Notes: generated by a model not told the origin, from the letters alone. DNA of 64,000 nt from Candidatus Woesearchaeota archaeon (GCA_964358765.1 CAYHPN010000003.1:43327-107326), one strand, 5' to 3'; counted from the first letter of the stretch, positions 20,617-57,780 are shown. Numbers and translations: made by a program.

Positions 20617-20818
20617 TAAATTATAACGAAAATAATTTCCTATGGAAATATAGTTATTTTATACGAAGTAAATTCGTCTAAAATAAAATTTATAGAAAAT
20701 TTGTAAAATTTTCTAATCCGACAATTTTGTATTAAAAATTAAAAAATTGTCGATATGAGAAGTTTGCTTTCGAATAAATTACTAAATGTGCTTTAGCACC
20801 CATGCCTGTTAAGGCATT
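20617..20818 (+). repeat. Intergenic repeat element, copy A (about 200 bp)
   Basis: It shares the 5' module taaattataacgaaaataatttccNatggaaatatagttatttt and the 3' module aaattactaaNtgtgcNNNagcac plus a terminal hairpin with copies at 34695, 54707 (rc) and 57639 (rc). It ends 12 nt before the ATG of the gene at 20830. Confidence 0.7.
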
Positions 20819-20829
20819 ATCTTAATAAT

Positions 20830-21789
20830 ATGGACTTGATAGATAAAAAAATACTCTGCGAACTTGATATTAATTGTAGAACTCCCTATAGTAAAATAGC
20901 AAAGAAACTTCGGATTGGAAGAAATGTATTTGATTATAGAGTTAAAAAATTAGAAAAAGAGAGTGTTATTACTAATTACATTTGTTCAATTAATCTTGGA
21001 AAATTAGGCTATAATACTTATAAGATATACTTTAAAATTAAGTCATCTAATATTGATAAAGAAAAGAGGTTTATTAATTTTATACTGGAAGATAAGAGAG
21101 CAATACACTTTCTCAAAACCGAAGGATCTTTCGATTATACTATTGCAGTTGCTGTGAAAGATATAAAGGAGCTAGATGAATTTATCTCTGAGTTAAGGGA
21201 TAATTTTAATGAAATAATAAATGACTATATGATAAGCATAGTTGTTTTTTCCAGAATTTTTAAATTGCATAAATTATTATTAAAAGAAAACAAAGAAATC
21301 ATTAAATTTGACAAATATGATAATAATAAAGATCAAATAACCTTAGATGATAAAGATAAAGTAATTTTAAAGACGCTTTCAAATAATGCAAAATTATCAA
21401 TCGTAGCATTATCGGAAGTAACGGGTTTAAGTATAGATATAATAAAATATAGGTTAAAGATTTTATCTAGTACTATTATAAGTTCATTTCGAATGATTCC
21501 GGATATAAATAAATTGGGTTTCTTTCATTATGTTGCTATGCTAAAAATTAGGAATTCTTCTATAAATGAAGAAAAAAACTTTGTAAATTGGTGCGCTAAT
21601 AAGTATAATATAATGTACTTAACAAAAAGAATTGGTTATTTTGATTATGAGCTTAACTTTGCTATTATGGATATTAAAGAACTAAACTCTTTTATCTCAG
21701 AACTAAAATTAAATTTCAATAATATTATAGATTCTTATGAACTCATAATAAATAGCAACTTGCTAAAATTAAATTATCTTCCTTTTTAA
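20830..21789 (+). CDS. Transcription regulator with two tandem Lrp/AsnC modules (HTH + RAM, duplicated)
   Basis: Two repeats of the pattern LDxxDxxILxxLxxNxRxSxxxIAxxxGLSxxxVxxRIKxL, each followed by a RAM-like domain. It is paralogous to 37572-38543. Confidence 0.65.
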   Translation: MDLIDKKILCELDINCRTPYSKIAKKLRIGRNVFDYRVKKLEKESVITNYICSINLGKLGYNTYKIYFKIKSSNIDKEKRFINFILEDKRAIHFLKTEGSFDYTIAVAVKDIKELDEFISELRDNFNEIINDYMISIVVFSRIFKLHKLLLKENKEIIKFDKYDNNKDQITLDDKDKVILKTLSNNAKLSIVALSEVTGLSIDIIKYRLKILSSTIISSFRMIPDINKLGFFHYVAMLKIRNSSINEEKNFVNWCANKYNIMYLTKRIGYFDYELNFAIMDIKELNSFISELKLNFNNIIDSYELIINSNLLKLNYLPF

Positions 21790-21793
21790 TAAA

Positions 21794-22585
21794 TCAGATA
21801 ATTTTTAAAAATAATAAAATCTCCATAACTATAGATAATGATAAGGCATAAACCCCAAACCATCTTAAATTTTTCTTCTTAGTCAATACATAGCCCATAA
21901 GTAAATGAATAGTAATTAAACCAATTATAAAAGAAATTAAAGTTGGGATAAACATTTCTGGAGGAATATTTCCCCTCCCTAGTTCTATTAAATTTGCCCC
22001 CAGTATTGCAGGAATTGACATTAAAAATGAAAATTTAATTGCATCTTTCTCTCTTAATCCAGTTAATAATCCTGCAGAAATAGTAGTTCCACTTCTTGAT
22101 ATTCCAGGAAATAAAGCAATAACTTGAGAACATCCAATTAAAAGTGCTTTGCCATATCCAAATTTCCGATTCTTATTATTTTTAAATTCAAGAGATCCAA
22201 TAAAAAGAACAATTGCAGTAATTGCAAAACCAACTGCTACTATAGCTAAACTGGAGAAAGCACTCTCAAATATTTTTCTAAACAATAAACCTATAACTGC
22301 AGAAGGAATTGTTGCTACTAAAACCATTAAACCTAATTTTCCTTTTTCGCTCTTCCATTTTCCTTTAAGTAAATTTTCAATTATATCAACTATATCTTTT
22401 CCAAAGTAAACAAAAACAGCCATTAAAGTTCCAAAATGCAATGCAACATCAAATTCTATCCCCCCTCCCTTAAATCCTAAAATTTTCTCAAATAATACTA
22501 AATGTCCAGAGCTTGAAATAGGCAGCCATTCAGTTGCTCCCTGAATTATTGCCAGTATTAAAGATTTAACAAATTCACTAATCAT
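21794..22585 (-). CDS. uppP: Undecaprenyl-diphosphatase (BacA/UppP)
   Basis: IQGATEWLPISSSGHL signature, 8 TM helices, and the GISRSGTTI motif. Confidence 0.85.
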   Translation of the reverse strand: MISEFVKSLILAIIQGATEWLPISSSGHLVLFEKILGFKGGGIEFDVALHFGTLMAVFVYFGKDIVDIIENLLKGKWKSEKGKLGLMVLVATIPSAVIGLLFRKIFESAFSSLAIVAVGFAITAIVLFIGSLEFKNNKNRKFGYGKALLIGCSQVIALFPGISRSGTTISAGLLTGLREKDAIKFSFLMSIPAILGANLIELGRGNIPPEMFIPTLISFIIGLITIHLLMGYVLTKKKNLRWFGVYALSLSIVMEILLFLKII

Positions 22586-22636
22586 TTTAAAATTAAAAAA
22601 CAGCCATTAATAAAATTAATTATCCTCTTTTATGCT

Positions 22637-34372: not shown

Positions 34373-34687
34373 TTGCCCGATACAAGTATGAAAGATTGCG
34401 TACCTTATTGCTGCGATATGCGTGGAATGTTATCATTCTTAATTCTATTTTTACTTTCTAAAAAATCAATGCATGGACAAGAAATTGCTCTTGAATTAGA
34501 AAAAAGAAAAGGGGAAAAACCCTCTCCAGGAACAATCTATCCAGCATTAAAGCATCTTAAAAATGAAAAACTCATTTCTGAAAATAAAGAAGGCAAAAAT
34601 ATTTATTATTCTCTGACTAAAGAGGGTAAAGATGCTCTTAAAGTTGCAAAGATCAAATTTTGCACTATTTTTAAGGATGTTTTTTAA
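34373..34687 (+). CDS. PadR-family transcriptional regulator
   Basis: GMLSFLILFLLSKKSMHGQEI...GTIYPALKHLKNEKLI...YYSLTKEGKDAL is the PadR winged-helix pattern. Confidence 0.65.
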   Translation: MPDTSMKDCVPYCCDMRGMLSFLILFLLSKKSMHGQEIALELEKRKGEKPSPGTIYPALKHLKNEKLISENKEGKNIYYSLTKEGKDALKVAKIKFCTIFKDVF

Positions 34688-34694
34688 TATAATA

Positions 34695-34896
34695 TAAATT
34701 ATAACAAAAATAATTTCCCATGGAAATATAGTTATTTTGTCCAAAGTAAATTTGCTCAAAATAAGAATTTAGGCAACACTTGCTTTTGACTATCGGCAAT
34801 TCTGTTTTAAATTTGTCAAAATTGACGTATTAGAGAATTTAACAGAATTCTCTATAAATTACTAACTGTGCTTTAGCACTCTGCCCGAAGGATATT
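34695..34896 (+). repeat. Intergenic repeat element, copy B
   Basis: Same 5' and 3' modules as copy A. It lies between the PadR stop and the 35004 gene start. The spurious track ORF 34547-34759 is a translation of this repeat. Confidence 0.7.
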
Positions 34897-44754: not shown

Positions 44755-45064
44755 AACTTAATTGACAATTGATTTCTAATCTTGAATCATTGCATTTTAT
44801 CTTCCCATTGTCAATATCATACTCCTTACAACAAAAAGTGAGTTTATCGTTATTATCACAAGCAATCCCGCAAGCATTCTTTATTGCAGAGGATGTCGAG
44901 GTATCCACAAATGGTTTCGTTCCTTCCTTAAAACTCTTAAAACCTCCCAATAAGGCATATGCAATTCCAACCAATACGAGTATTCCAATCACTATTAATA
45001 TCAATGTTGAAATCGCCATTTCCATCCCTTTAGAATTTTTCATTTTAAGGTTCTTTAAACTCAA
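44729..45064 (-). CDS. Pilin-like protein (class III signal peptide) with a Cys-rich C-terminal domain
   Basis: NSKG-MEMAISTLILIVIGILVLV is a prepilin-type signal. Eight Cys residues follow. Confidence 0.55.
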   Translation of the reverse strand: MSLKNLKMKNSKGMEMAISTLILIVIGILVLVGIAYALLGGFKSFKEGTKPFVDTSTSSAIKNACGIACDNNDKLTFCCKEYDIDNGKIKCNDSRLEINCQLSCEDYNCNG

Positions 45065-45488
45065 GAATATCCGTACAGCTGCGACTGTTCACAATTGTTT
45101 TCTCTTTGTCCTTATCATCAAATTTTTGACATCTTTCACTTTCTCTTACTTCTTTACTTTCTCCGCAATCTAATTTGGTCTCAACTCCAACTAAAACTCT
45201 ATCATCCTCACAATTGACGTACTCAGTTTTTCCATTAACCTTAATCTTCTTAAAATCAGTACAATAAGATATTTTGTCGCTTGAGGCAACTGCCGTATTA
45301 CATGCAGCTGCAACAGTAGAAAGCGAATTACCACCTTGAAATATATTAATCTTCTCCCATAAATTGCTCCAGCCCATTGAAAATCCTAAAATCAATAACA
45401 CCAAAACTATAATTCCTAAAACAATTAATATTAAAGTACCTATAGAAAGATCCTGTCCTCTCTTATTAACCCTCTTCTCCATCACCAT
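45045..45488 (-). CDS. Pilin-like protein (class III signal peptide, KRGQ motif) with Cys-rich domain
   Basis: VNKRGQ-DLSIGTLILIVLGIIVLV matches the archaeal EppA/PibD-type prepilin signal with Q at +1. Confidence 0.6.
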   Translation of the reverse strand: MVMEKRVNKRGQDLSIGTLILIVLGIIVLVLLILGFSMGWSNLWEKINIFQGGNSLSTVAAACNTAVASSDKISYCTDFKKIKVNGKTEYVNCEDDRVLVGVETKLDCGESKEVRESERCQKFDDKDKEKTIVNSRSCTDILEFKEP

Positions 45489-45504
45489 TCTAAATTTTTT
45501 ATAT

Positions 45505-45972
45505 TTATAAACCTTTACCTAATTTTATAATTATTTCAAAATTCCTCTTTATTTTATTATTTCCTCTTTCTGCTTCAACAAATAAATCTTTAATAATAAT
45601 TTCTTTAATTCCTTCATTTTCGATAATTTCAAACTCTCCATTTCTTAGTTTAGCATATATGTTTCCAGCACCCTCGTACCTATATGTTTTTTCCTTTTCA
45701 TTGGATATTCTAATTATCCTTTGTTTTAATTCTTCATTATTACAACTGCCGCATTCATTGTAAGCCTCATCAAATATCAATCTTGTCTGCTCTTGTAGAT
45801 ATTCTTCATTAAAAATTACTTCATTCATCATCTCAGATAAGTTTTTTGAATCTGTATATAACGCTGAATTAAATGTTACCATCCCCCATAATGATACAAT
45901 AATTAAGGTTATTGTTGTAACTAACAATATTCCTGTTGCTACGTCTCCTTTTTTATTCATTATTATAAACAC
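45505..45972 (-). CDS. Pilin-like protein (class III signal peptide)
   Basis: MNKKG-DVATGILLVTTITLIIV. Confidence 0.5.
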   Translation of the reverse strand: MFIIMNKKGDVATGILLVTTITLIIVSLWGMVTFNSALYTDSKNLSEMMNEVIFNEEYLQEQTRLIFDEAYNECGSCNNEELKQRIIRISNEKEKTYRYEGAGNIYAKLRNGEFEIIENEGIKEIIIKDLFVEAERGNNKIKRNFEIIIKLGKGL

Positions 45973-46547
45973 GCTCCATAATAATATTGTATAAATACAT
46001 CTTGCAATTTATTATTTTTAACAATAATTTGGTTTAGATAACCGCCATTATGGTATTTCCCAGCAGATAACGGTCTACCCCCTAAACTCTCATCAATTAC
46101 TTCATCATAATTAAAATTCATAGATATATCATCTCTTGCTGATCCTCCAGTTCTTCCTGCCGGTTTCTCAGTATAACCTTTTGCTAAAATCAAGCAATGA
46201 CCTTTCTGAACTATTTTCATTAAAGATTTTGTTAGTGTTTCTCTATCAATTATTTCGTTTTCATACAAGACATAAGAATCTAACACAAACATCTCTTTTT
46301 CCTTTCCATCTATATTAATTTGGATTTTATTTAATAAAAGATCATTGCTTGCAGTAGAAATTGATTCTGGACTAACCATGGATGGTTTTTTTATTAATCC
46401 GCTTGCAGCAACAAACAAATACGCTCCTAAAATAAAAATGATAAATAGCAATACTGGTAAAAATACAATTCCTTTCCCCAGTTGTGCTTTTTTATGGATA
46501 ATTCTGTTGTTCAATATTAGTTTTTTAGAATTTTCCATATTTATCAT
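45963..46547 (-). CDS. Pilin-like protein (class III signal peptide)
   Basis: KKAQLGKG-IVFLPVLLFIIFILGAYLF. The N-terminus is a basic stretch, then G, then a hydrophobic helix. Confidence 0.45.
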   Translation of the reverse strand: MINMENSKKLILNNRIIHKKAQLGKGIVFLPVLLFIIFILGAYLFVAASGLIKKPSMVSPESISTASNDLLLNKIQINIDGKEKEMFVLDSYVLYENEIIDRETLTKSLMKIVQKGHCLILAKGYTEKPAGRTGGSARDDISMNFNYDEVIDESLGGRPLSAGKYHNGGYLNQIIVKNNKLQDVFIQYYYGACL

Positions 46548-47077
46548 GTGAGTTTCTCCCTGCTTAATTGATTGCTTCCAGTAGATATTATAAAGTTGTA
46601 TTCTCTTTCTTTTATTTTCATTTTTAAAGTAGAATCAACACACCTCATATATTTTGGATTTTTCTCTGACAAAGCACATTGCGCTTCATCTCCCTTTCCT
46701 AAATTTAGAATTTCATTTTTTTCATCCTTTATCTGTATAAACCATGAATTCCCAGTTGAATTAAAATTTATATTGCACTTAGAATAAAATTCTTCTTCTA
46801 AAACTTCTTTATTATTGTCCCAATTAACCTCTTGCGTTTTAATGCAATTTCTTGCATTCTTATTTAAAATTGCAGCATCTACTTCTCTAAATTCATAATT
46901 TTCAGAAAAAAATAAATAAGATCCTAAAATAATGCCCGCGGTTATAACAATAATAAGAAAAAAAAATGCAATTACCATGGTCATATTCCCTAGTTGTGCT
47001 CTTCTCGATTTAATATTTTTATTCATTTTCACTCCCGACCTCCATTTCCTTATCAATAACCTTAAACGACAATACAT
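46544..47077 (-). CDS. Pilin-like protein (class III signal peptide); the start is probably the internal Met at 47026
   Basis: MNKNIKSRRAQLG-NMTMVIAFFFLIIVITAG. Confidence 0.45.
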   Translation of the reverse strand: MYCRLRLLIRKWRSGVKMNKNIKSRRAQLGNMTMVIAFFFLIIVITAGIILGSYLFFSENYEFREVDAAILNKNARNCIKTQEVNWDNNKEVLEEEFYSKCNINFNSTGNSWFIQIKDEKNEILNLGKGDEAQCALSEKNPKYMRCVDSTLKMKIKEREYNFIISTGSNQLSREKLT

Positions 47078-47450
47078 TTATCGGATCTGCAAGCCTTAAT
47101 TCATCATTTACAATTGACACATCATTAAAATAAGAATAGCATTTTTTTCTTCCTTTTGACAATTTAACGCACACTTCGTTATTTACATTATCAAATTGAA
47201 AAATTTCTGAATAACTCCCTAGTGTTTGTTTTTGCGCAATTTCTGTGGCTTTATGTACATCTAAAACAACTTCATCTCCAGGTTTTGCCATATTTATTAC
47301 TTTAGTTATTTCTTTAGAATAATAATCCTCATAAAAAGAAGTCGCAAATTTGAAATTTCCTAAGAAATACATTGTCATAGAAAAAAATATAACTGCTAAA
47401 ACTATGTAAATCGCATTATCTAAAATTATATTCGTCCCTTTCTTATTCAT
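47019..47450 (-). CDS. Pilin-like protein (class III signal peptide)
   Basis: MNKKG-TNIILDNAIYIVLAVIFF. Confidence 0.5.
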   Translation of the reverse strand: MNKKGTNIILDNAIYIVLAVIFFSMTMYFLGNFKFATSFYEDYYSKEITKVINMAKPGDEVVLDVHKATEIAQKQTLGSYSEIFQFDNVNNEVCVKLSKGRKKCYSYFNDVSIVNDELRLADPINVLSFKVIDKEMEVGSENE

Positions 47451-48103
47451 TTTCTTATTTCATCCATATGGTCTAAATATTCGTTAGTATAATGTGTAAT
47501 AACTAATATTTTTTTACTGCCTTCCATTTTCTTAGTTATTTCTAATTCCAATAATTTATTTTTTTCAAAAGCCAAATAATCTAAATTTTGTTTATTGTAA
47601 TAACCAGTCCAAGACTCAAAATCACTAGTAGGTCTAGCAAAAGCCATATCTTTTGTAGCATGAGTTACATTGATAATTATTTCATCAAAATCTAATTTTT
47701 TGAATACTCCTTTTTCTTTGCAACTAGCTTCTTTATTTTCTCCATTTCCTTTGCAAATAGCAAGGCATAGCTGCTCAAAACATGCATCAGGCCTATTAAA
47801 ATTAGAAAAATTAAAACTGGTTAGAAACCATCCCTCTCCATTTACCGAATTTATTGTTTTCTTTACTGGGTTATTATCTTCAACATCGTTAATTCTTTGT
47901 TCAATTACATCTCCAAATCTTTTTGCACTATTAATTTCTCTGTCTTGTAAAAAATTAGTGTATATTTTTACACATGCAGCAAATAAAATAACTAAAATTA
48001 GCACGGCAATAACTAATTCTGTAGAGTTTTCCATCAAATTGCCACCTTTATCTTTTTTTTCTATTTTCATTTTAAAATATCCGACCTTAAGGATCTCCTT
48101 CAA
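47447..48103 (-). CDS. Pilin-like protein (class III signal peptide) with Cys-containing C-domain
   Basis: KKDKGG-NLMENSTELVIAVLILVILFA. Confidence 0.45.
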   Translation of the reverse strand: MKEILKVGYFKMKIEKKDKGGNLMENSTELVIAVLILVILFAACVKIYTNFLQDREINSAKRFGDVIEQRINDVEDNNPVKKTINSVNGEGWFLTSFNFSNFNRPDACFEQLCLAICKGNGENKEASCKEKGVFKKLDFDEIIINVTHATKDMAFARPTSDFESWTGYYNKQNLDYLAFEKNKLLELEITKKMEGSKKILVITHYTNEYLDHMDEIRK

Positions 48104-49133
48104 TGTAACTGCAAACCTTATTTATTGATTCCACTTCGTAAGGCAAAATTTGTACTGTTGAACACCCCTCAACTTCACTAGTCTCTTCATTTTGAAAATC
48201 ACTGCAATGATTAACAGCAGCTACTTTTCCTTGATAAACATTTGACATTGCATTTACAGTTGCACCAGCACCTATTACTCCGATAAATGCTAGTCCAGTT
48301 GAGGAAGTTGCAACTTTACCTACAAATGGCACCTGTGAAGCTGTTACTACAGAGGAAATTCCTAGTCCAGCTAAATTATTTAGTACATCCATATAACCTT
48401 TATTTTTAATCTGAGTAAATACTACCGCGTATTCTGTTAAGTCGTCGTCATTAAATTCCGTTTTTTTATTATAAATTCCTAATTTCCCTCCTATATCATC
48501 AGGTGTTTTTGCATATCCATTTACAGATCTATCTTTTGCAAAATATTGTAAATATGTCTCGCTTTTCCCTTCTATTTGTTTCGTTCCCAGATATTCCTCT
48601 ACATTAACTTTATTTTCATTTTTTTCCCCTTCAATATATTTCAAAAGAGTTTCATTATTTTTTGATTTTATTTTTACTCTGGAACAAATCATGCAAGTAA
48701 CATCTTGTTTTTCCTGCCCATATGTCTTTGCTAGTCCTCCATTGAATAAATCCATTTTCCCTTCTCCCATCATATTCCAGCAATTATACATTTCATCAGC
48801 CAATGTCTTTTCAATAGTTCTCTTATCACTTCCAATATCTCCAGATAATTGAATGGTTTTCTTTACGTTTTCCTCTCCTCTAAAATCTTCACAATCCTTT
48901 CCATCTGAAATACAAATTTTCTTAGTAGTGCATTTCAATGGTACATAGGCTGAAGTAGCCTGCGGTGAAGTTGCTCTTGTTAAAACAGAAAAAGCACATA
49001 CATCTTCATTTGTTTCCCCTCCTAAATTCAAGCCATTTAAAATAAAATATAATACTACTACAAATCCTGCAATAACTAAAACTGTAGTTATAACAAAACT
49101 AGAAGTCAATTCTCCTCTTTTGCCTTTTTCCAT
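48087..49133 (-). CDS. Large pilin-like protein (class III signal peptide, KRGE motif), first gene of the operon
   Basis: MEKGKRG-ELTSSFVITTVLVIAGFVVVLY, followed by a 300-aa Cys-containing domain. Confidence 0.55.
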   Translation of the reverse strand: MEKGKRGELTSSFVITTVLVIAGFVVVLYFILNGLNLGGETNEDVCAFSVLTRATSPQATSAYVPLKCTTKKICISDGKDCEDFRGEENVKKTIQLSGDIGSDKRTIEKTLADEMYNCWNMMGEGKMDLFNGGLAKTYGQEKQDVTCMICSRVKIKSKNNETLLKYIEGEKNENKVNVEEYLGTKQIEGKSETYLQYFAKDRSVNGYAKTPDDIGGKLGIYNKKTEFNDDDLTEYAVVFTQIKNKGYMDVLNNLAGLGISSVVTASQVPFVGKVATSSTGLAFIGVIGAGATVNAMSNVYQGKVAAVNHCSDFQNEETSEVEGCSTVQILPYEVESINKVCSYIEGDP

Positions 49134-49205: not shown

Positions 49206-50621
49206 ATGAAGTCTCTTAAAGAACATAGATATGATATCGAAAAGATAAAGAATAACATTAAAGCAAATAGAAAGGATAATAGAAAATTGCGGTTCGATCA
49301 TGGAAGCACCAACGCTACAAGGAAAAAAGTTACAGAAAAATACCATACTATTAACATTTCAAATTTAAACAAGATAATTGAGATCAATCCCAATAATAAA
49401 GAAATTACCCTTGAGCCAGGAGTAAAAATGTTTGAATTAGTTGAAGAATGTTTAAAATTCGGCCTTATTCCTCCAGTAGTTCCAGAATTTAAAGAAATCA
49501 CAGCAGGCGGAGCAATTTTAGGAGGGGCATTAGAAAGTTCTTCATTTAAGTTCGGTCAATTCGGTGATAGTTGTATTGAGTTAGACATAATCGATGGAGA
49601 TGGAAATTTGATTAAAACATCAAAGTCGAAAAACTCAGATTTATTTTATGGCATACAAGGGTCCTATGGAAGTTTAGGTTTGCTTACATTAATAAAATTA
49701 AAATTAATAGAAACAAAACCTTATGTAAAATTAGAAATTTGTACATGCACAGATTTGCAATCATCGTTAATGTTAATAAAAGAAAAAACATTCTCTAATT
49801 CCGACTTTATCGATGGCATAATATATAAAAATAAAATTGTAGTTTTGACTGGCACATTTTCACAAAATGCTCTTTCGTCGCTTGCATTCTCAAAAAGATT
49901 TGATGAATGGTTCTACAAGTATATTGATAAAAAATCAAATCTAACTAAAAATGAAATCGCCTATATTCCAATCAAAGAATACCTATTTAGATACGACCGC
50001 GGGGCATTTTGGATGGGAGATTATGCATTTAAAATCCTAAAAATGCCCTTGTTTAATTCTAGAATATGCAGAGGAGTATTCAATCATTACTTCACAACCA
50101 AAGAATTATACTCTGCATTACATCTTTCAAATTATTTTCAAGAATTTTTTATCCAAGACATTTATTTTCCTTTTGACAATGCAATCAATTATCTTAAATG
50201 GAATAAGAATAAATTAAATATCTATCCAATTTGGTTATGCCCAATAAAGGCTGTAAAAAATCCACAGAAACTTTCTCCCCATTATATCAAAGATACATTA
50301 TTATTAAATATAGGAATTTGGGGTCAATCTAAAGTTTTTCTTACAGATTACCTTTTGATCAATAAAAATATTGAAAAATTAGCCTCTCAAAATAAAGCAA
50401 GAAAAATGCTCTACTCACAACAATATTACACGCCCTCTGATTTCTGGAAAATCTACTCTAAAAAATGGTACGATAATCTAAGAAAAAAATATCATATGAC
50501 TATATTTCCAGATATTTATGAAAAAACATTTGTTTCTGAAAAATATAATCCTAATATATTCAAAGGTTTTCTCAATTATCATAAGTTAAAATTAAAGAAA
50601 TTCATTTCTAATTTTACATAG
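49206..50621 (+). CDS. FAD-binding (PCMH-type) oxidoreductase of the DHCR24/DIMINUTO family
   Basis: ITAGGAILGGALESSSFKFG...KNSDLFYGIQGSYGSLGLLTLIKLKLIETKPYVKL aligns with DHCR24 (VTVGGLI.G.GIE.SSHKYG...[35 protein letters not shown]). Confidence 0.55.
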   Translation: MKSLKEHRYDIEKIKNNIKANRKDNRKLRFDHGSTNATRKKVTEKYHTINISNLNKIIEINPNNKEITLEPGVKMFELVEECLKFGLIPPVVPEFKEITAGGAILGGALESSSFKFGQFGDSCIELDIIDGDGNLIKTSKSKNSDLFYGIQGSYGSLGLLTLIKLKLIETKPYVKLEICTCTDLQSSLMLIKEKTFSNSDFIDGIIYKNKIVVLTGTFSQNALSSLAFSKRFDEWFYKYIDKKSNLTKNEIAYIPIKEYLFRYDRGAFWMGDYAFKILKMPLFNSRICRGVFNHYFTTKELYSALHLSNYFQEFFIQDIYFPFDNAINYLKWNKNKLNIYPIWLCPIKAVKNPQKLSPHYIKDTLLLNIGIWGQSKVFLTDYLLINKNIEKLASQNKARKMLYSQQYYTPSDFWKIYSKKWYDNLRKKYHMTIFPDIYEKTFVSEKYNPNIFKGFLNYHKLKLKKFISNFT

Positions 50622-50645
50622 TAAACTTCTTAACTAATAAAATTT

Positions 50646-50742
50646 AATGCCCTGCGGGCAGTTCTATTATTGTAATTCATTCGGAAGTAAATTCCTCATG
50701 AATTCTATTTTGGCTAAATTTACTTTAGACAAAATAACTTCC
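50646..50742 (-). repeat. Partial, diverged copy (E) of the intergenic repeat element
   Basis: It shares aatgccctNcNggcag and attctattttggctaaatttactttagacaaaataact with copy C, and lacks the palindromic ccatgg module. It begins 25 nt after the oxidoreductase stop. Confidence 0.45.
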
Positions 50743-50945
50743 TTCTCATAAAGTTTTTATACTTTATATACTAAAATTTAATTGCTTTTCGTTTTGTCTT
50801 TGCAAAGTTTCAAAATATGAAGCATATATAATTTACATTGTAAATTTCTTAACTAATAAAGTTAAACCGTATATTGCTACACCAAGAAAAATTATCCATA
50901 ATAATATCTTAATCATAAACTCCATTTCAAATGCTTTTTTATTCA

Positions 50946-51809
50946 TTAATGCACCTCAACAGGACATTTATAATTTAGATCATTAGATTCAGTAGGTTTT
51001 GCTAAATCGACTTTTAATTTATCAGGTTTGTAAAAAATCACGCAATACCTTTTAGTTTCTCTCTCTTTTCCATCCTCTTGATATGTTAAAGAAATTGGTT
51101 CATCTGCCATTGACGATCTCCATTTCTGTGCAATGGCATTAAAAGTATTTATTAAGTCTCTATTACTTACCTTCTCATATTTATCTTCAGGAACAATTTT
51201 GTCTCCGTCTATAATTTTAGTCTTTAATATTTCTACTTGGCCATTAACTAAAACTTTTACAATCCCTCCTATAGCTTTAGAAACACAATCTTTAGAATCT
51301 TCTTTTACAAGTTTAATTATAACATCATTATTTTTATTAGGTTCTGTAGTAGAAATAAGAGGTACACATGCTTTAACATCGGGAATCTGTGGACACGCTG
51401 CACTTTTAGAACAAGGATCATATAACATTTCTATTGTCTTTGGGTGTAATGTTTCAAAGGATTCACTTTTTAATTTATTATTGTAAAACCAATCGTCTTC
51501 AAATTCCTTCTTCAAAAGTTTCTGATCTAAATTTTTCTTCCCAACTTTAGCCTCACCTTTTGCATTAAAATCATAAAAATTGTTCCCATCGTACCACTGA
51601 ACTTTTTTAGCAGTTAAATCATATCGTATAATTTCAATACCTTCTGCAAGAGGTTTAGTCATATTATATCCAGGAAGCAATATTTTTATTTTATCTATTA
51701 TAGTGTTGCCAAATATAAGTATAACGCCTAATGCAACTATAATTAATACAGTTACTGCCTTTCCTATATTTACTCCTTCATCTGCGGTTTGAGAGGCTTT
51801 TCTATTCAT
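50946..51809 (-). CDS. N-terminally anchored extracellular protein, possibly pilin-like
   Basis: ADEGVNIGKAVTVLIIVALGVILIFG is an N-terminal hydrophobic helix after a short polar leader. The start overlaps (ATGA) the stop of the mini-pilin ORF. Confidence 0.4.
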   Translation of the reverse strand: MNRKASQTADEGVNIGKAVTVLIIVALGVILIFGNTIIDKIKILLPGYNMTKPLAEGIEIIRYDLTAKKVQWYDGNNFYDFNAKGEAKVGKKNLDQKLLKKEFEDDWFYNNKLKSESFETLHPKTIEMLYDPCSKSAACPQIPDVKACVPLISTTEPNKNNDVIIKLVKEDSKDCVSKAIGGIVKVLVNGQVEILKTKIIDGDKIVPEDKYEKVSNRDLINTFNAIAQKWRSSMADEPISLTYQEDGKERETKRYCVIFYKPDKLKVDLAKPTESNDLNYKCPVEVH

Positions 51810-51973
51810 TTTCCAAATATCTTCAGATTTTTTAAAAATGCTGCCGCAGAGTTCATCTTCCCGCTAATAACTAAATATACTATCATTCCCAAAACCAGTA
51901 CTGCTATTCCAATGATCCATGGAATAAGATTATCCCAAACTAGTTGTCCTTTATTTCTTTTTTTTATGTTCAT
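51806..51973 (-). CDS. Unannotated 55-aa mini-pilin-like protein MNIKKRNKGQLVWDNLIPWIIGIAVLVLGMIVYLVISGKMNSAAAFLKNLKIFGK
   Basis: It is not in the ORF track (under 60 aa). A KRNKGQ class III signal motif is followed by a hydrophobic helix. Its TGA overlaps the ATG of 50946-51809 (ATGA). Confidence 0.45.
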   Translation of the reverse strand: MNIKKRNKGQLVWDNLIPWIIGIAVLVLGMIVYLVISGKMNSAAAFLKNLKIFGK

Positions 51974-52147
51974 CATTGTTTTATATAAATTTCATTTATG
52001 AATTTTAAATTATCCCAAACTAGCTGCCCCTTTCTCCCTACCCTTTTTTTCATAAATTAAAAAAGAATAAGGAGTATAAAAATACTTTGTAATTTTACTC
52101 TCTTAATCTAAAACGTACAATTTATAACATCTTTTTTCCTATATTAA

Positions 52148-54385
52148 TTGACAAAAAAGAGAATGGCAAACGAAAACTATAATCCGGATTATAATGGCCC
52201 TAGCTTTGGCTTTAACAATCAAGGAAATAACAATGCTTCTTCGATCATAAAAAAATATTCTCAAAAGTTAAATTCTCAGTTGAATTATAACTCTCAAAAT
52301 AATGCAGGCTATTCTAAAGAATATTCTCAGTTTAAAATTGAAATGGCTCCAGATCTTTCTAGATATGAAAAATGGGCAAAGTCTCTTGGCAATGTCCTCA
52401 ATCTAAAGATTGCAGAAAAAGACCGCATTAAAATGCAAAGGTATTTAGATATCGCTCATCTCGATGTTACTGCTTCTCAATCTCTAACCCTGGCAGTAAT
52501 GGCAACTTTTGCAGTATTTTTCGTAACAATTATGTTAGTTGTCGGAATTTATTTAATAAATGATAGTCTTCAACTTCTCTTAGGTTTTCTTGGAATCATT
52601 GCAAGTCTTTTTATCTTTTATTATACATATGGCATGCCTCAAAGGCTTTCAAATTCTTGGAGACTTTCTGCTTCCGCTCAAATGGTTCCTGCAATTTTGT
52701 ATGTTGTAGTTTATATGAAACATACTTCTAACCTAGAAAGAGCAATTCAGTTTGCTTCTCAGCATCTAGAAGGACCTTTAGCCTTAGACTTTAGAAAAAT
52801 ATTTTATGACGTTGAAATTGGAAAATTCTCAACAATCAAGCAATCTTTAGAGAATTATTTAGAAGAGTGGAGAGATTATTCCCCTGAATTTATAGAAAGT
52901 TTCCATTTGATTGAATCTTCCTTATTTGAACCAAGTGAGATTAGAAGAGTAGAAATATTAGAAAAATCATTGCAAGTTATTCTTGATGGCGTCTATGAAA
53001 AGATGCTGAAATACTCAAGAGAAATACGTTCTCCACTAACCAACCTTTATATGTTGGGAATTATTTTACCAACTCTTGGTTTAGCTCTTTTGCCCTTAGC
53101 TTCTACACTTTTAGCCGGAGCTTTCAAATGGCCCCATGTCATTATTTTATTTAATGTCATAATCCCTTTCTTTGTTTTTTATATGGTTTCAGAAGTTCTC
53201 TTAAAGCGTCCAGGAGGTTATGGTGAAACTTCTGCACTCCAGTTAAACCCAAATTATCAAAGTTATAAATCAAATAAACCTTACTTCAAAGCAGCTTTAA
53301 TTGCTTTCCCTATTTTATTAATTGGTTTGCTTCCCTTGTTGCTGCAAATAAATTATTCAGTTATAGGCCTAAATATTCCTCATGATTTTAAGATGGAAAA
53401 AATAGGTCTTGGATTTTTCGGAGATGTAAATGCTTTTGATTTTAAGCCAATTCCAGATGGTAATGGTAAAAGAATTGGACCCCTAGGCCCATTAGCCTTA
53501 GTTCTGAGCATGTTCATCCCATTATCTATTGCTGTATTTTTCTCATTTACATATTCTCAAAAAACTAAAAAATTAATAAGCACTAGAAAAGACACCAAAG
53601 TTTTAGAAACGGAATTTACTAATTCTCTCTTTCAATTAGGGAACAGATTAGGAGATGGTATTCCAGCTGAAATAGCTTTTGGTAGAGTTGCCGATTCTAC
53701 AACCGGGCAGAAAAGTTCTGAATTTTTCTTAGTAGTAAGTAAAAATATACAGCAAGGAGGCATGGATGTAGAAAACGCCGTATTTGATCAAAAAAGAGGA
53801 GCAATTACTTATTTCCCATCCGCTTTAATTGCCACCTCTATGAGAATTCTAGTAGAAAGCGTAAAAAAAGGTTTAACTGTTGCAGCACGATCATTAATGT
53901 CGATTTCAGAATATGTAAAAAACATAGAAAAAATTAATCAGCGTCTGCGTGATCTCTTAGCAGAAATAGTTTCCGATATGAAATCAAATATGACTTTCTT
54001 AGCACCTTTACTTGCAGGCATTGTTGTAGGTTTATCCGGAATGATAACATTTATACTTAACAAATTAGGAGAACTAAATTTAGGTGAAGGAAGTTCTCAG
54101 CTAGGCGGATTTGATATAAATACTCTTTCAAGTTTTCTGGATTCAACAAATATGATTCCTCCTTATTTTATACAAATTGCTATAGGGGTCTATATTATAG
54201 AAATTATCTTCATTTTAACTGGAGCTTTAATAACTGTTGATGCCGGGAAAGATCCTCTTAGGGAAAAATATGAATTAGCCAAAAACTTAAGAAGAGGTAT
54301 GTTCCTTTACCTAATTACGGCATTCATTTCAACTCTTGCTTTAAGCATACTAGCAGGTTTTGCACTATCAAATCTTGGGCAATGA
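52148..54385 (+). CDS. FlaJ/TadC-like polytopic membrane protein with two T2SSF-type domains (pilus/archaellum assembly platform)
   Basis: Two cytoplasmic helical domains separated by TM triplets: AIQFASQHLEGPLALDFRKIFYDVEIGKFSTIKQSLENYL and TEFTNSLFQLGNRLGDGIPAEIAFGRVADST resemble GspF/T2SSF repeats. It is 745 aa with about 9 TMs. Confidence 0.5.
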   Translation: MTKKRMANENYNPDYNGPSFGFNNQGNNNASSIIKKYSQKLNSQLNYNSQNNAGYSKEYSQFKIEMAPDLSRYEKWAKSLGNVLNLKIAEKDRIKMQRYLDIAHLDVTASQSLTLAVMATFAVFFVTIMLVVGIYLINDSLQLLLGFLGIIASLFIFYYTYGMPQRLSNSWRLSASAQMVPAILYVVVYMKHTSNLERAIQFASQHLEGPLALDFRKIFYDVEIGKFSTIKQSLENYLEEWRDYSPEFIESFHLIESSLFEPSEIRRVEILEKSLQVILDGVYEKMLKYSREIRSPLTNLYMLGIILPTLGLALLPLASTLLAGAFKWPHVIILFNVIIPFFVFYMVSEVLLKRPGGYGETSALQLNPNYQSYKSNKPYFKAALIAFPILLIGLLPLLLQINYSVIGLNIPHDFKMEKIGLGFFGDVNAFDFKPIPDGNGKRIGPLGPLALVLSMFIPLSIAVFFSFTYSQKTKKLISTRKDTKVLETEFTNSLFQLGNRLGDGIPAEIAFGRVADSTTGQKSSEFFLVVSKNIQQGGMDVENAVFDQKRGAITYFPSALIATSMRILVESVKKGLTVAARSLMSISEYVKNIEKINQRLRDLLAEIVSDMKSNMTFLAPLLAGIVVGLSGMITFILNKLGELNLGEGSSQLGGFDINTLSSFLDSTNMIPPYFIQIAIGVYIIEIIFILTGALITVDAGKDPLREKYELAKNLRRGMFLYLITAFISTLALSILAGFALSNLGQ

Positions 54386-54419
54386 AAAGCAATATATAAT
54401 CTATTTTTCTAATATTAAC

Positions 54420-55196
54420 ATGGCATTAAATTTTATTTCAGAAAATAAAGAAAAATATCTGGAAATTAAAGAAATAATTCCTCAAATAAAAATGATTTCT
54501 CTCCAGCTTCCAGAGATTCAGGAAATAGACCCAAAAGCCATAATAGAGGGAAAATTAAAGTTCGCTATGAAAAAACAAAAGGGTGAACTTTTCTGTGAAG
54601 ATACTTCTCTTTATATCAACTGTTTAAATGGTTTTCCAGGTCCTCTAATCAAGTGGATTCTCAAATCTCTCACCGATAAAGGATTAGCAGAATTAGTCTT
54701 AAAATAATGCCCTTCAGGCAGGGTGCAGATGCACATTTAGTAATTTAGTCAAAAGGCAAGTGTTGCCTAAATTCTTATTTTGGGCAAATTTACTTTGAAC
54801 AAAATAACTATATTTCCAATGGAAATTATTTTCGTTATAATTTACATTAGATTGAAATATAAAGATCATTCAGTAATTGCTAAAACAGTAATAGGATATA
54901 CTGATGGAAAAGAAATAAAATATTTCCAAGGTTCTATAGCTGGAAAGATTGTTTTACCTAAAGGAAATAACGGATTTGGCTGGGATAAAATATTCCTTCC
55001 ATTAAACTCAAATAAAACTTTTGGAGAAATGACTTCCTCTGAAAAGAATAAAATAAGTATGAGAAAAATAGCTGCACTAAACCTAAAAGATTATTTAAAT
55101 TCAACCGCCACTTCTTCTCAAGGTTATATAATTATTAATTATCAACCCTACAATCAAAACAGAAACAATATGTCCAGTAAATGCAGCAATAATTGA
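54420..55196 (+). pseudogene. Ham1/RdgB-family non-canonical NTP pyrophosphatase (ITPase) split by insertion of repeat copy C
   Basis: The N-terminal half (to 54707) MALNFISENKEKYLEIKEI...LFCEDTSLYINCLNGFPGPLIKW matches the Ham1 N-terminus. The C-terminal half (from about 54858) YKDHSVIAKTVIGY...GNNGFGWDKIFLP...KTFGEMTSSEKNKISMRKIA matches the Ham1 C-terminus (FKTVIGY..GYGFAYDSIFIP..TFAEMTTEEKSQISHRKKA). A stop-containing insert of about 150 nt separates them. Confidence 0.7.
54707..54859 (-). mobile_element. Repeat element copy C (MITE-like) inserted inside the ITPase gene, flanked by an AAATA (possibly TTRAAATA) direct duplication
   Basis: Its reverse complement carries the full 5' module taaattataacgaaaataatttccattggaaatatagttatttt and the 3' module aaattactaaatgtgcatctgcac-cctgcctgaagggcatt. 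Left junction cttaaaata|atgccc; right junction gattgaaata|taaagat. Confidence 0.7.
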
Positions 55197-55772
55197 AACT
55201 AGCCTAGCCGCGCCCATTGGACAGATATCTCCATATCCTACAGTAAAAAAAGTAACTGCACTAAAATAGAAGAAATCTCTTGAAATTAAGTTATCTGTTC
55301 CTATCATTTGATTATTAAAATCGCTTGTACATCCACCATACCTTATATATCCTCTTCCAGTTAATTCTACGATATTAAAGACCGTAGCAAAAATAAATAA
55401 AATCCCAAATAAGAATAATGCATACGCTCCAATTAAAGACAAGAGATTTTTGGGTTTTAATAAATGATCAATAAACCCTTTGACCATATAGCCCATAACA
55501 ATAATAAAATAAATAGCAATTAATATTTCTATAAATACTATTGGCAATCTTACTTTGTAAATTTTAGGATAATATTTTAATATATTTGAGAGTACTACAT
55601 AAACTAAAATTAATAAAACAAATTTGGTTAACGGTCTATTAAAAAGTATTCTCCTCATACCATGAATTTCTTTCCCTCTTTTAATTATAGCCTTCACTCT
55701 CTTTTTCATAAATAATTTAAGATTTTCTTGTTTAAAAGTCTTCTGAAAAGATGTATCTGCAAAGTCTCGCAA
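55101..55772 (-). CDS. Two-TM potassium channel (KcsA-like pore)
   Basis: The selectivity filter TVGYGD is flanked by TM helices (FFYFSAVTFFTVGYGDICPMGAARLVSIIAAF). Confidence 0.75.
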   Translation of the reverse strand: MRDFADTSFQKTFKQENLKLFMKKRVKAIIKRGKEIHGMRRILFNRPLTKFVLLILVYVVLSNILKYYPKIYKVRLPIVFIEILIAIYFIIVMGYMVKGFIDHLLKPKNLLSLIGAYALFLFGILFIFATVFNIVELTGRGYIRYGGCTSDFNNQMIGTDNLISRDFFYFSAVTFFTVGYGDICPMGAARLVSIIAAFTGHIVSVLIVGLIINNYITLRRSGG

Positions 55773-55783
55773 AACTCTAGTAA

Positions 55784-57517
55784 TTACCCAGATTCTTTAT
55801 TCTCATCTTCATCTTTAGTGTCCTCATCGGCATCTGTTTCATTATCATTATCCAAATCATCATCTGTTTTTTCATCGTCATCAGTTTTTGTTTCTTTTTG
55901 TTCAAATTTTTTTAGTGCTGATTCTACTTCTAAAACGGTCACTCCTAATCTTGCTGCAACTTCTGATAAAATAACCGCCTTATCTCCTGATTCTATCCTC
56001 GATGAATCCTTCACCCCTTCCCATTCGTATTTTACATCTGCAATAGTTTTACCATCTTTTTCTTTAACTTTTATCTCAACCTTCCTTTCCTTATTCTCTT
56101 CAAGGTCATTTTCTTCCTCGATTCTGGCTACTATTCGTAATTGATCTATTGTTAAAGCATTTGTTTGTTCAACAATATCAGCATAAATTTCTTCAGAAGT
56201 AATTCCACTTATAAATCTTAATTTAAATTTAATTTCAGCTCTTGTTTCTCCATTCTCTTTTCGTTCTAGATCAATTTTTACCCTCAATCTTTCCTTGCTT
56301 ATAAACTCTTCCTCGCTTCCATCATCTGTTTCATTTTCATCAGAATCATCATCTTCTGCATCTTCATCTAATTCATCAGAATCATCCTCTGTTTCATCCT
56401 CCTCCCGTTCGTCAGAATCCTCATCTTCTGCATCTTCATCTAATTCATCAGAATCCCCATCTTCGTTTTCTGTATCATTATTGTCTGAATCGTCATCAGC
56501 ACTATCTTCATCGTCATTGTTTGATGATCCAGTCGCTTGACCAGTAATTAAAGAATTATCTGAATTTTCTTCAGATCCATCTTCATCTAATTCATCAGAA
56601 TCTTCATCATTTGTTTCATTTTCATCCTGTTCGTCAGAATCATCATCTTCATTTTCATTCTCTAACTCATCAACCATCCCTGCAGACTCAGAATCATCTG
56701 CTCCTTCCTCAATCTTAGTTATCGTTTTTGCTTCATCTTGAGTAGTCGTTACTTGTGCTAGGGTTTTTTGCAGTAAGTCCTCAACTGTCAATAATGTTGA
56801 TGATTCTGTTTTTTCTTTAAAACTATATTCTACAGTTACTACAGAAACATTACCTATAATTTCTGCTTTTATTCGCTTATCTTCTCTTAATTCGTCCAGT
56901 TCATTTCTTATCTCTAACCTTGATCTACCTAGTTTTTCTTCAAATTTAATTAAAGATGTAGACTCTGCATCATCAATTTTCCCTTTTATGTTTTCTAACA
57001 CCCCCTCAACACCTAACAATTCTTGCAATACTAATCTTCTTTGTTCAAGAGTTAATTCTGAAAGTAAATCTTGTAATTGTGTCAGTTCCTCTTCTTGTAA
57101 AGAAAGAGTTTTCTCAACAGTTATAACATCTCTTAATATGTCTTCATCTTTTGCTTCATTTAATCGCTCTTCAATTCTAACTCTTACTTTCTCAAGAATT
57201 TTTTCATGTGATTCTTTAGCTTCTCTTATTTTTTCTTGTTTTCCTTTCTTACTCATTAATTTTATTTCTTCAAATCTTTCCTCAGCAATCCTTAAACCCG
57301 TAGTTTCCTTATCCTTGGAAAAAGTATATTTCAAATTATCCCAAGTCTTATCTAAACTATAAAACATACTTTCCGGTGTTGTTCCAGCCTCAATATCTTC
57401 AAACTCTGAATCTATTTCTTCAATACTTAAAGTAGAATCATCAATCTCCCCAGTAGCAAAAGGCATTACTAAAAAAAGAAAGATTATTACAAAATAGAAA
57501 TACTTCTTCAACCTCAT
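55784..57517 (-). CDS. Secreted, extremely acidic D/E-rich repeat protein
   Basis: Signal-peptide-like MRLKKYFYFVIIFLFLVMPFATG (the track starts 24 codons earlier at a TTG). There are long runs of DSDELDEDAEDEDSDEREEDETEDD with nucleotide-level tandem repeats around 56290-56680. Confidence 0.5.
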   Translation of the reverse strand: MRLKKYFYFVIIFLFLVMPFATGEIDDSTLSIEEIDSEFEDIEAGTTPESMFYSLDKTWDNLKYTFSKDKETTGLRIAEERFEEIKLMSKKGKQEKIREAKESHEKILEKVRVRIEERLNEAKDEDILRDVITVEKTLSLQEEELTQLQDLLSELTLEQRRLVLQELLGVEGVLENIKGKIDDAESTSLIKFEEKLGRSRLEIRNELDELREDKRIKAEIIGNVSVVTVEYSFKEKTESSTLLTVEDLLQKTLAQVTTTQDEAKTITKIEEGADDSESAGMVDELENENEDDDSDEQDENETNDEDSDELDEDGSEENSDNSLITGQATGSSNNDDEDSADDDSDNNDTENEDGDSDELDEDAEDEDSDEREEDETEDDSDELDEDAEDDDSDENETDDGSEEEFISKERLRVKIDLERKENGETRAEIKFKLRFISGITSEEIYADIVEQTNALTIDQLRIVARIEEENDLEENKERKVEIKVKEKDGKTIADVKYEWEGVKDSSRIESGDKAVILSEVAARLGVTVLEVESALKKFEQKETKTDDDEKTDDDLDNDNETDADEDTKDEDENKESG

Positions 57518-57638
57518 AAAAAAAGAATATCCAACCTCCTTTAAATATCTTCCGGCAATAGCAAATTTTAGACTTCTCTTTTTTTCCAAACCATTAAAAT
57601 TATGTAAGAAATTTTCATGTCATCTAAGCAATCAAGAA

Positions 57639-57780
57639 AATGCCCTTTCAGAGCAAAGTGCTTACGCACATTTAGTAATTTAGTTCAAAAGTAAATTTTG
57701 AATAAATTCTTATTTTAGACGAATTAAATTCGTTTAAAATAGCTATATTTCCATGGGAAATTATTTTCATTATAATTTAC
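57639..57780 (-). repeat. Intergenic repeat element, copy D
   Basis: The reverse complement reads taaattataatgaaaataatttcccatggaaatatagctatttt...aaattactaaatgtgcgtaagcac...gaaagggcatt. It is oriented toward, and about 120 nt upstream of, the acidic protein gene on the minus strand. Confidence 0.7.

Follow-up and report, generated by a model that had tools for sequence, protein, structure and literature searches.

Structured repeats that probably form a family of small non-autonomous mobile elements in a DPANN archaeon

A 64,000-nucleotide stretch of DNA assigned to Candidatus Woesearchaeota archaeon (GCA_964358765.1, CAYHPN010000003.1:43327-107326), which was analysed at its full length and is called the window below, contains five copies (A to E) of a hairpin-rich repeat that had been pointed out in an original prediction made from the sequence alone. 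Our analysis suggests that this repeat probably represents a family of small (~125-215 bp), non-coding, non-autonomous mobile elements in a Pacearchaeota/Woesearchaeota-like DPANN archaeon. One copy interrupts a Ham1/ITPase gene that is intact in its homologues, the hairpins have been kept by compensatory changes, and further copies are dispersed over other contigs. To our knowledge, the mobile DNA and the non-coding RNAs of DPANN archaea, whose genomes are tiny and tightly packed, are almost unstudied.

Five Copies of the Repeat in the Window

The element is small, non-coding, multicopy and dispersed: it measures 125-215 bp, contains no open reading frame (ORF), and is present in five copies in 64 kb, where it makes up about 1.3% of a sequence that is 89% coding. 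A profile hidden Markov model built from copies A-D recovered these four copies with E values of 3e-38 to 8e-49 and copy E with an E value of 2e-6, and it detected no further site with E < 0.02 in the window. A covariance model, run with all filters off, gave five forward-strand sites and no others in the 64 kb, the remaining matches being weaker opposite-strand echoes at the same five sites. All five stretches were thus found where the original prediction had placed them, with ends that we redrew from the break in the Ham1 gene at copy C and then transferred to copies A, B, D and E (Table 1). On its 5' side the element thus begins with TMTAATG/TATATAG, and on its 3' side it stops at ..GGGCAT(TA).

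The alignment of the five copies shows modules in a fixed order, and those described previously correspond to the helices named here P0 (the CCATGG palindrome), P1/P1a, P2, P3 (the GTGC..GCAC hairpin) and P4 (..GGGCA). The prediction had counted four full copies and a partial one; the number of five stands, but copy E is not partial, being a full-length member of a sister subfamily.

Table 1. Coordinates of the repeat copies, their parts and the interrupted gene in the window
Feature	Position	Strand	Description
Copy A	20610-20825	+	Type 1, long form
Copy A, helices	P0 20629-20653; P1/P1a 20654-20686; P3 20788-20799; P4 20803-20816	+	
Copy A, extra hairpins	20693-20715; 20719-20752	+	P2 3' strand ends at 20780
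Copy A, tail	20817-20825	+	TTATCTTAA
Copy A, 5' flank	20604-20609	+	TTTTAA
Copy B	34688-34903	+	Type 1, long form; extra block differs from that of A
Copy B, helices	P0 34707-34731; P1/P1a 34732-34764; P3 34868-34879; P4 34882-34894	+	P4 degenerate
Copy B, extra hairpins	34794-34827; 34832-34853	+	
Copy B, tail	34895-34903	+	
Copy E	50638-50771	-	Subfamily E, full length, without P3
Copy E, helices	P0 50748-50767; P1/P1a 50705-50737; P2 50674-50704; P4 50648-50660	-	
Copy E, direct repeat	50638-50647 (tail); 50772-50781 (5' flank)	-	TTAAATTTTA, exact over 10 nt
Copy C	54699-54851	-	Type 1, short form, antisense within the Ham1 gene
Copy C, helices	P0 54808-54832; P1/P1a 54775-54807; P2 54742-54773; P3 54723-54734; P4 54708-54720	-	
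Copy C, tail	54699-54707	-	TTATTTTAA
Copy C, 5' flank	54852-54859	-	TATTTCAA, repeats TATTTTAA at 54699-54706
Ham1/ITPase gene, split by copy C	54360-55196	+	N-terminal half to 54707, C-terminal half from ~54852
Copy D	57632-57786	-	Type 1, short form
Copy D, helices	P0 57743-57767; P1/P1a 57710-57742; P2 57677-57708; P3 57658-57669; P4 57641-57655	-	
Copy D, tail	57632-57640	-	TTTTCTTGA

Copy C Interrupts a Ham1/ITPase Gene

Copy C is flanked by two ORFs in the same frame that align with the Pfam Ham1 profile at its positions 2-95 and 107-185, respectively, and the stretch between these ORFs carries stop codons throughout. When joined without the insert, the two halves make a protein of 177 aa, the same length as the best of 353 Ham1 homologues (69% identical). 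Leu-Lys, which is present once in intact homologues (..AELV-LKYKDHS.. in the alignment), stands in the window both before and after the insert, TATTTCAA and TATTTTAA each encoding this pair. The insertion can be described equivalently as 145 bp between TATTTCAA and TATTTTAA, as 147 bp plus a 6-bp TTTYAA repeat, or as 153 bp located 3' of TTTCAA; the flank reads TATTTYAA, and 6-8 bp of the Ham1 coding sequence are doubled. Because the intact homologues reveal a clean insertion, the element is or was mobile, as had been proposed when copy C was first seen to lie in a coding sequence, which we now identify as Ham1. The interrupted gene should be non-functional; it is the only gene of this kind (non-canonical NTP pyrophosphatase) in the window.

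An intron was considered for copy C and rejected. The 153 nt keep the frame, but stop codons lie inside the insert, and the junctions give by inspection a 5-bp TAATG/CATTA helix and no bulge-helix-bulge motif.

No empty sites were found in the contigs fetched for the flanking proteins, all of which derive from the same population and either carry the repeat or break at it. Public contigs of this population end at repeat copies, and such assembly breaks are expected of a multicopy element at low coverage. Four contigs (L079, L080, L082 and L084 in our numbering of loci) have ends near window positions 34730, 34980 and 50690, within or beside copies.

The Fold Is Kept by Compensatory Substitution

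Each copy can be drawn as a chain of five helices, P0 to P4, in a fixed order, with P3 being optional. P0 is a 5' hairpin that differs among subfamilies, includes TATA-like bases and shows a C-G to G-C swap between subfamilies. By hand segmentation, P1 is an invariant UUAUUUU/AAAAUAA(G) stem around P1a; its inner closing pair switches from G-C to A-U, and a pyrimidine or A.C mismatch is conserved. P1a has 5 bp, at least six different sequences and a GUAAA loop. P2 closes a variable domain able to take extra hairpins and occurs in the compensatory versions AAUUUA/UAAAUU, AAUUCA/UGAAUU and AUUUUA/UAAAAU, with a conserved G.A/A.G tandem at the P2a base, and P3 is found as GUGC/GCAC, AUGC/GCAU and UUCG/CGAA. 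P4 (UGCCY..RGGCA), whose loop-closing pair is C-G, U-A or U.G, is followed by a U-rich tail.

A covariance model of 114 positions and 34 pairs recovered 32 forward-strand copies at 60-135 bits, with opposite-strand echoes of 30-55 bits at the same sites. Pairing was observed in 95.6% of the alignment cells, and changes on both sides were present in 20 of the 34 pairs, compared with 9.2 ± 1.6 in shuffles (none of 500 reached the observed number) and 1-5 in slid controls; the covariation score was 0.307 versus 0.148. Segmenting the sequences by hand revealed the same swaps. Single copies folded better than shuffled sequences (z = -2.1 to -5.5). G.U cells (40) outnumbered A.C cells (5), an excess that favours folding of the given strand, and strand specificity of the fold is likely. 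Taken together, these data show that the hairpins noticed in the original prediction are maintained by compensatory substitution while the subfamilies diversify and swap modules.

When the whole window was searched against Rfam at gathering thresholds, only two tRNAs were retrieved. With the limit relaxed to E ≤ 5 for window positions 50000-58500 and to E ≤ 1 for four loci, no Rfam match overlapped a copy, and the description of the family as previously unnamed is upheld in that it matches no Rfam entry.

Ends and Flanking Sequences

The 6-10 nt located 5' of a copy resemble the 3' tail of that same copy, ATTAWYTTRA. This repeat is exact over 10 nt at copy E and at locus L059 and matches at 7 of 8 positions at copies A and C and at L031, and in a permutation of 8-mers the 5' flanks were overall closer to their own tails than to those of other copies (p = 5e-5). 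The pattern fits integration at sites that mimic the 3' end of the element; duplication of random targets fits less well. Tail-like target patterns are predicted alike by site-specific, HUH-type and microhomology-primed mechanisms.

Terminal inverted repeats (TIRs) are missing from types 1, 2 and E (the subfamilies are described below), whose ends read TMTAATG.. or GTATATAAA.. on the 5' side and ..GGGCATTA on the 3' side, the best match between them being the 5-nt TAATG/CATTA, offset by 2 nt. A short TIR (~13 nt, CTTRRYYTCGCCA) together with a 6-bp duplication was found only in distant type 4 relatives (L040, L061, L062 and L064). P4 and the T-rich tail resemble a terminator in copies C, D and E.

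Two further ideas about the internal sequence were tried and dropped. A P0 segment complementary to the tail and target (AAAATAAT/ATTATTTT in type 1, CAAGTTTAT/ATTAACTTG in type 2) could have been an internal guide, but L011, L017 and L031 break the covarying pattern. A leader peptide was considered for the ORFs MERELFCLK and MRRKLFCLK of types 2 and E; type 1 has a stop at codon 4. The type 1 P0 also contains the palindrome TTTCCNNTGGAAA (e.g. window 54813-54826 and 57748-57761), which we take, as a lead only, to be similar to the dyad core of the archaeal mini-ORB origin box (TTCCAGTGGAAA); an origin role is unlikely, given that copies are scattered and do not group around an origin.

Copies Accumulate behind Genes

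The repeat had been described as consistently oriented just upstream of genes. Copies A, B and D are indeed co-oriented with the genes downstream: copy A ends 4-10 nt before the ATG (20830) of a tandem-Lrp gene, copy B, directly preceded by the TAA stop codon (34685-34687) of a PadR-like gene, ends ~100 nt before the start (35004) of a DUF2207 gene, and copy D ends at least 42 nt before the start (57589) of a gene for a DUF5667 protein (55784-57589). Copy E is enclosed by two converging genes. As a rule, however, the description fails. Among the 33 copies whose downstream neighbour is known, only 13 are followed by a co-oriented start (at a distance of -22 to 264 nt). Of the 27 intergenic sites classed, 12 lie in convergent and 2 in divergent spacers, the tandem sites being 9 co-oriented and 4 anti-oriented. 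Both divergent sites are those of window copies A and D, so that the impression of an upstream position arose from a biased sample, the window holding these two unusual sites plus copy B. With 12 convergent versus 2 divergent sites, the proposed role as a mobile promoter or 5'-untranslated region (5'-UTR) module is not a general one either.

When the element-free intergenic base pairs of the window (7% convergent, 41% divergent) were taken as the null, the excess of convergent sites gave p = 9e-8 and the deficit of divergent sites p = 1e-4; with a null of counts the values were p = 0.002 and p = 0.12, respectively. In about 24 of 32 copies the element is preceded by a co-oriented stop codon, in many instances by 0-30 nt, and a stop codon faces the 3' end of the element at 16 of the 27 sites, while the orientation bias in tandem spacers is weak (9 co-oriented versus 4 anti-oriented, p = 0.27). 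The general rule is, thus, that copies accumulate behind genes, at gene 3' ends.

Tandem Lrp paralogues, with two AsnC-type helix-turn-helix domains each, are encoded at 20830-21789 (+) and 37572-38543 (-), and a copy precedes the first only.

Subfamilies and Relatives beyond the Window

A metagenome scan with the core pattern TTATTTTN5AAGTAAATTN5AAAATA yielded 70 loci, and the same pattern had no match in viral contigs. With nhmmer, 51 matches were obtained in loci, and the non-redundant copies amount to ~47 (78 loci). About 40 non-identical copies were thereby added to those of the window; the majority belong to this same archaeon of the Hainich groundwater, and other populations have families related to it. 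The copies are therefore not confined to the window, dozens of them lying in unrelated flanks on other contigs, and the purely local duplication that had been envisaged as an alternative does not apply. A scan of GTDB genomes with the pattern TTCCNNNGGAAATATAGNTATTTT was also tried; it gave four matches only, all bacterial and apparently due to chance, which indicates that type 1 is absent from the GTDB species representatives, this pattern being specific to type 1 and not the shared core.

Window copies A-D constitute type 1, which carries the CCATGG palindrome. Type 2 (GGTATATAAACTTTAAACAAGTTTATGG..) has an ATGC..GCAT hairpin. Type E, to which window copy E belongs, has no GTGC..GCAC hairpin P3; four further loci hold copies that are 94-99% identical, which indicates that this subfamily spread recently. 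Type 3 (180-600 nt, CTTGAC...CTCAAG) is known from JGI contigs as well as from this Hainich population, and type 4, from JGI sample Ga0182027, has G+C-rich hairpin ends besides the short TIR and 6-bp duplications. The P1/P1a core is the only part common to all subfamilies and to the relatives in other metagenomes.

Modules have been exchanged between types (L012, L006/L033), and some copies form head-to-tail pairs (L078 and L055). Copies A and B carry extra blocks of 62-63 nt with two hairpins inside the P2 domain, and each of the two different blocks is also present in copies elsewhere. At L006 (= L049), positions 4091-4276 join the 5' half and the upstream genes of the L033 copy (2730-2917) to the 3' half of copy A and its Lrp gene, with the switch point inside a common 63-nt extra block; this junction reflects either genuine recombination of two copies or, with a coverage of 3-4x, a chimera made in assembly.

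Type 3, a second and larger hairpin-rich family, was located at L014 9196-9512 (-), L078 2044-2222 (-), L055 14513-14683, L010 4100-5140 (-) and L050 2172-2949. It is multicopy in the Hainich population, and JGI contigs from other sites have conserved it. Its variable domains are enclosed by a long-range helix, GACAGTTGG/CAACTGTC, and the P1/P1a core is present. At L010, non-coding hairpin modules continue over ~1 kb.

Search for a Mobilising Enzyme

No protein family is enriched beside the copies, and Pfam revealed no transposase, integrase or reverse-transcriptase domain in 50 window ORFs. In ~0.5 Mb of related contigs, a partial coverage of the genome searched with crude probes, there were no matches to Y1 transposase, reverse transcriptase or recombinase motifs; the Y1 probe consisted of tblastn with an approximate IS608 TnpA sequence, plus motif scans.

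A tyrosine integrase that adjoins a type 3 copy in L053 (1-2530), and of which a 63% identical version is encoded in L010 (6384-10343), was examined as a specific partner. It belongs to a family of 385-390 aa with 2073 proteins (E ≤ 1e-20) from Pacearchaeota/Nanoarchaeota, the top matches being ~60-70% identical. In seven loci (within L085-L091) fetched for three other members (P0143, P0190 and P0126), this family is found at the edge of a module that comprises the integrase, an N6/N4 methylase, a TrbC pilin and a TraC-like protein (TraC/VirB4-like ATPase), and a fourth look-up gave a similar list of genes. None of these seven loci contains the repeat, and the integrase was rejected as a specific partner. 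The arrangement resembles an integrative conjugative-type element carried by DPANN archaea. In L053, the integrase gene follows an apparent tRNA 3' end, seen by eye and cut by the start of the locus, where ARAGORN made no call.

Host and Neighbouring Genes

The window has a G+C content of 25-35%, and among its products are ribosomal protein L15e and Nre, which belong to archaeal families. The Lrp-like protein beside copy A has an identical sequence on metagenome contigs from Hainich groundwater well H43, and the closest relatives of the window Ham1 carry the names Pacearchaeota, Woesearchaeota or Nanoarchaeota. L15e, Nre and these names agree with the AT-rich, DPANN-type archaeal host originally suggested.

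Genes for CoaE, BacA and PadR had led us to consider a bacterial (CPR) origin, which was rejected on the strength of L15e, Nre and the DPANN names of the Ham1 relatives. At 19094-20242 (-), a cytidylyltransferase-like domain is fused to a CoaE-type dephospho-CoA kinase; CoaE is the bacterial/eukaryotic type of this enzyme and in an archaeon would be unusual. Within the DUF5667 gene, at 56338-56632 (-), sub-threshold Rfam matches to the C/D-box small RNAs sR52, sR2 and sR35 (E = 0.3-4.6) are spaced by ~60-70 nt and may reflect a tandem repeat of the coding sequence instead of small RNAs. A Bro-N domain protein is encoded at 40231-41133 (-), and downstream, at 45045-49133 (-), lie seven co-oriented ORFs (143-348 aa) without Pfam match; the Bro-N gene and this run may be a mobile or viral remnant.

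Discussion

In the mechanism that we propose, an enzyme encoded elsewhere would move the element by reading its structure and/or its 3' end instead of TIRs, probably on a single-stranded DNA (ssDNA) or RNA form. Integration would take place at T-rich TTTYRA sites, often containing or abutting a stop codon, and would either duplicate 6-10 bp or produce an end matching the target. Any effects on neighbouring genes would be by-products and not the reason for the family to exist; they might include a terminator-like P4 and U tract behind the upstream gene and, at copies A and D, a TATA-like box ahead of the downstream gene.

Several observations weigh against a family of mobile elements of this sort or against parts of its support. 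The alignment in which pairs were counted was fitted to the model, and the subfamilies share ancestry. The signs of a single-stranded intermediate are indirect. Two alignment columns contain 25 of the 40 G.U cells, and few events may thus be counted repeatedly; moreover, the minimum free energies of the two strands are alike (mean difference -0.95 kcal/mol, p = 0.14). A whole five-helix fold exceeds what most selfish repeats need and leaves room for an RNA function at the level of the host. Within subfamilies, where the tail is conserved, the flank-tail permutation gave p = 0.07-0.15, so that true duplication and target mimicry are inseparable. Copy C is the only copy with an independent empty site, and this site comes from homologues that are 55-69% identical, not from a sister strain. 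[quoted passage not shown]

Part of the evidence can also be read in other ways. Each copy might be the gene for a structured RNA of ~105-175 nt (P1-P4), with mobility being secondary; a putative box in P0 resembling a transcription factor B recognition element (BRE) and TATA would lie ~24 nt upstream of the conserved AGUUAUUUU, and the transcript would end at P4 and the U tract. The TATA-like octamer, which reads ATTATAAC in type 1 copies and TATATAAA in those of types 2 and E, does keep a constant distance of 23-24 nt from the core start, and the type 1 octamer follows GTAAAT, a sequence that we take to fit the archaeal BRE consensus RNWAAW. The covariation and the G.U excess, the sharing of P1/P1a alone by all subfamilies and their relatives in other metagenomes, and the terminator-like end of copies C, D and E are equally in line with such a gene. 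In types 3 and 4, however, there is a G+C-rich hairpin and the TATA-like box is missing at that position, and the compensatory swap in P0 spans the TATA-like bases, so that the folded species seems to start upstream of the proposed start. Since, in addition, module content varies from copy to copy, one copy is antisense within a gene and no variable guide-like segment was seen, we regard a small-RNA gene family as unlikely. A 3'-UTR or terminator cassette serving the host, co-transcribed with the upstream gene and stopping transcription and/or protecting the mRNA 3' end by its hairpins, would explain the conserved fold by selection, as proposed for bacterial REP and SPRITE. It would suit the 5' boundaries located 0-30 nt past a co-oriented stop codon in many copies, the enrichment of convergent and depletion of divergent spacers and the terminator-like P4 with its U-rich tail, and such roles have been noted for SPRITE and BOX elements (PMC10969869). 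The same positions are nevertheless predicted by purifying selection against insertions into promoters and genes; the orientation bias in tandem spacers is weak and convergent sites are uninformative on orientation, type 2 tails (UUAACUUG) make poor U tracts, and most window genes have no element, all of which renders the cassette improbable.

The promoter role originally suggested, in which the 3' part of the element would supply a TATA/BRE or a leader to the downstream gene, with AATAAATTACTAA as the putative promoter segment, draws on copies A, B and D, which point at co-oriented genes 4-106 nt away, and on copy A being so near the Lrp ATG that any promoter of this gene has to be placed within the element or upstream of it. 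It appears very improbable, given that co-oriented downstream genes accompany a minority of the copies at widely varying distances and are functionally unrelated, that stop codons so often face the 3' end, and that copy C lies inside a gene and copy E between converging genes. Chance similarity or a purely local duplication might be feared in a genome of ~30% G+C, where short AT-rich words recur, but E values down to 1e-49, dozens of copies in unrelated flanks on other contigs and the covariation refute it, and its probability is negligible. A family of non-autonomous mobile elements hence remains the reading that we favour.

A wider claim, that the family together with types 3 and 4 is a new archaeal replicator, structured, strand-specific and TIR-less, or that P1/P1a is the handle of a mobile small-RNA class, is doubtful at present, if worth entertaining. 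If it were true, the replicator would move via a single-stranded (ssDNA or RNA) intermediate to targets resembling its own 3'-terminal decamer ATTAWYTTRA, and it would constitute an archaeal analogue of REPIN biology, or of that of short interspersed nuclear elements (SINEs), with a new enzyme partner. The mobilising enzyme, if found, could bring to light a route of transposition that is so far undescribed in archaea. The family appears to have inactivated a housekeeping gene (Ham1/ITPase) and brings hairpins, U tracts and TATA-like boxes beside genes. In practical terms, the covariance model can serve to annotate and mask these repeats in metagenome-assembled DPANN genomes, and the presence or absence of copies can be used as a strain marker.

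Comparison with Known Systems

As MITEs, the repeats are small, non-coding, multicopy, AT-rich and mostly intergenic, with short flanking direct repeats, stable hairpins and nested or adjacent insertions. A very high MITE density, 105 per Mb, has been reported for one Woesearchaea genome (PMC11602168). In contrast to MITEs, types 1, 2 and E have no TIRs, the flanking repeat seems to mimic the 3' tail of the element itself instead of being a target duplication specific to each copy, the search brought up no parent insertion sequence sharing these ends, and a multi-helix fold is conserved over the whole length. The five-helix fold, the absence of inverted repeats and the target/tail mimicry make a poor fit to the standard MITE model.

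The absence of TIRs, the subterminal hairpins (one of them ~10 nt before the 3' end), the insertion beside a short specific sequence that resembles the other end of the element and the likely strand-specific biology recall palindrome-associated elements of the IS200/IS605 type and rolling-circle elements of the IS91/Helitron type. Unlike in these elements, the left hairpin (P0) has no sequence relationship to the right one (P4), and the target-like stretch measures 6-10 nt instead of 4-5 nt; no TnpA, TnpB or Y2 gene was seen in the ~0.5 Mb of related contigs searched with crude probes, and no Rfam omega-RNA or HEARO family was matched. Similarly, integron attC sites differ, by inspection, from these repeats, which have multiple hairpins, no RYYYAAC/GTTRRRY core sites at their ends, and occur as dispersed singletons between housekeeping genes and not in cassette arrays beside IntI. 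With SINEs the family shares a short, structured element with a promoter-like box near the 5' end, a conserved 3' stem-loop and tail, T/A-rich insertion sites, flanking repeats of variable length and subfamilies derived from master copies. However, there are no 5'-truncated copies and no A-rich tail, no reverse transcriptase partner is known or was seen, and an archaeal TATA box, lying upstream of the transcript, would not be copied through RNA.

REPINs, which are spread by a trans-acting enzyme (RAYT) that reads hairpins in single-stranded DNA, and REP sequences are likewise short structured repeats located behind genes in intergenic DNA and evolving as subfamilies within a lineage. A REPIN is, however, an inverted doublet of a 20-40 nt palindrome with GTAG-/CGTC-type heads, whereas five different helices follow one another here in a fixed order, and no RAYT or Y1 HUH gene was seen (~0.5 Mb, crude probes). 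The element therefore departs from the architecture of REPINs and IS200/IS605 as it does from the TIRs that define MITEs. We know of no covariation-supported global fold or target/tail mimicry in the pneumococcal BOX, RUP and SPRITE elements, to which the family has no sequence relationship and whose host belongs to a different domain of life. What it does share with them is the modular build with optional internal modules, as in boxA-boxB(n)-boxC. Those elements are intergenic and insert beside or into one another, and SPRITE has a terminator-like hairpin (PMC10969869). By analogy, the family described here would be new for DPANN archaea and would join a broadly familiar class of structured repeats that includes REPIN, BOX, SPRITE and MITE analogues.

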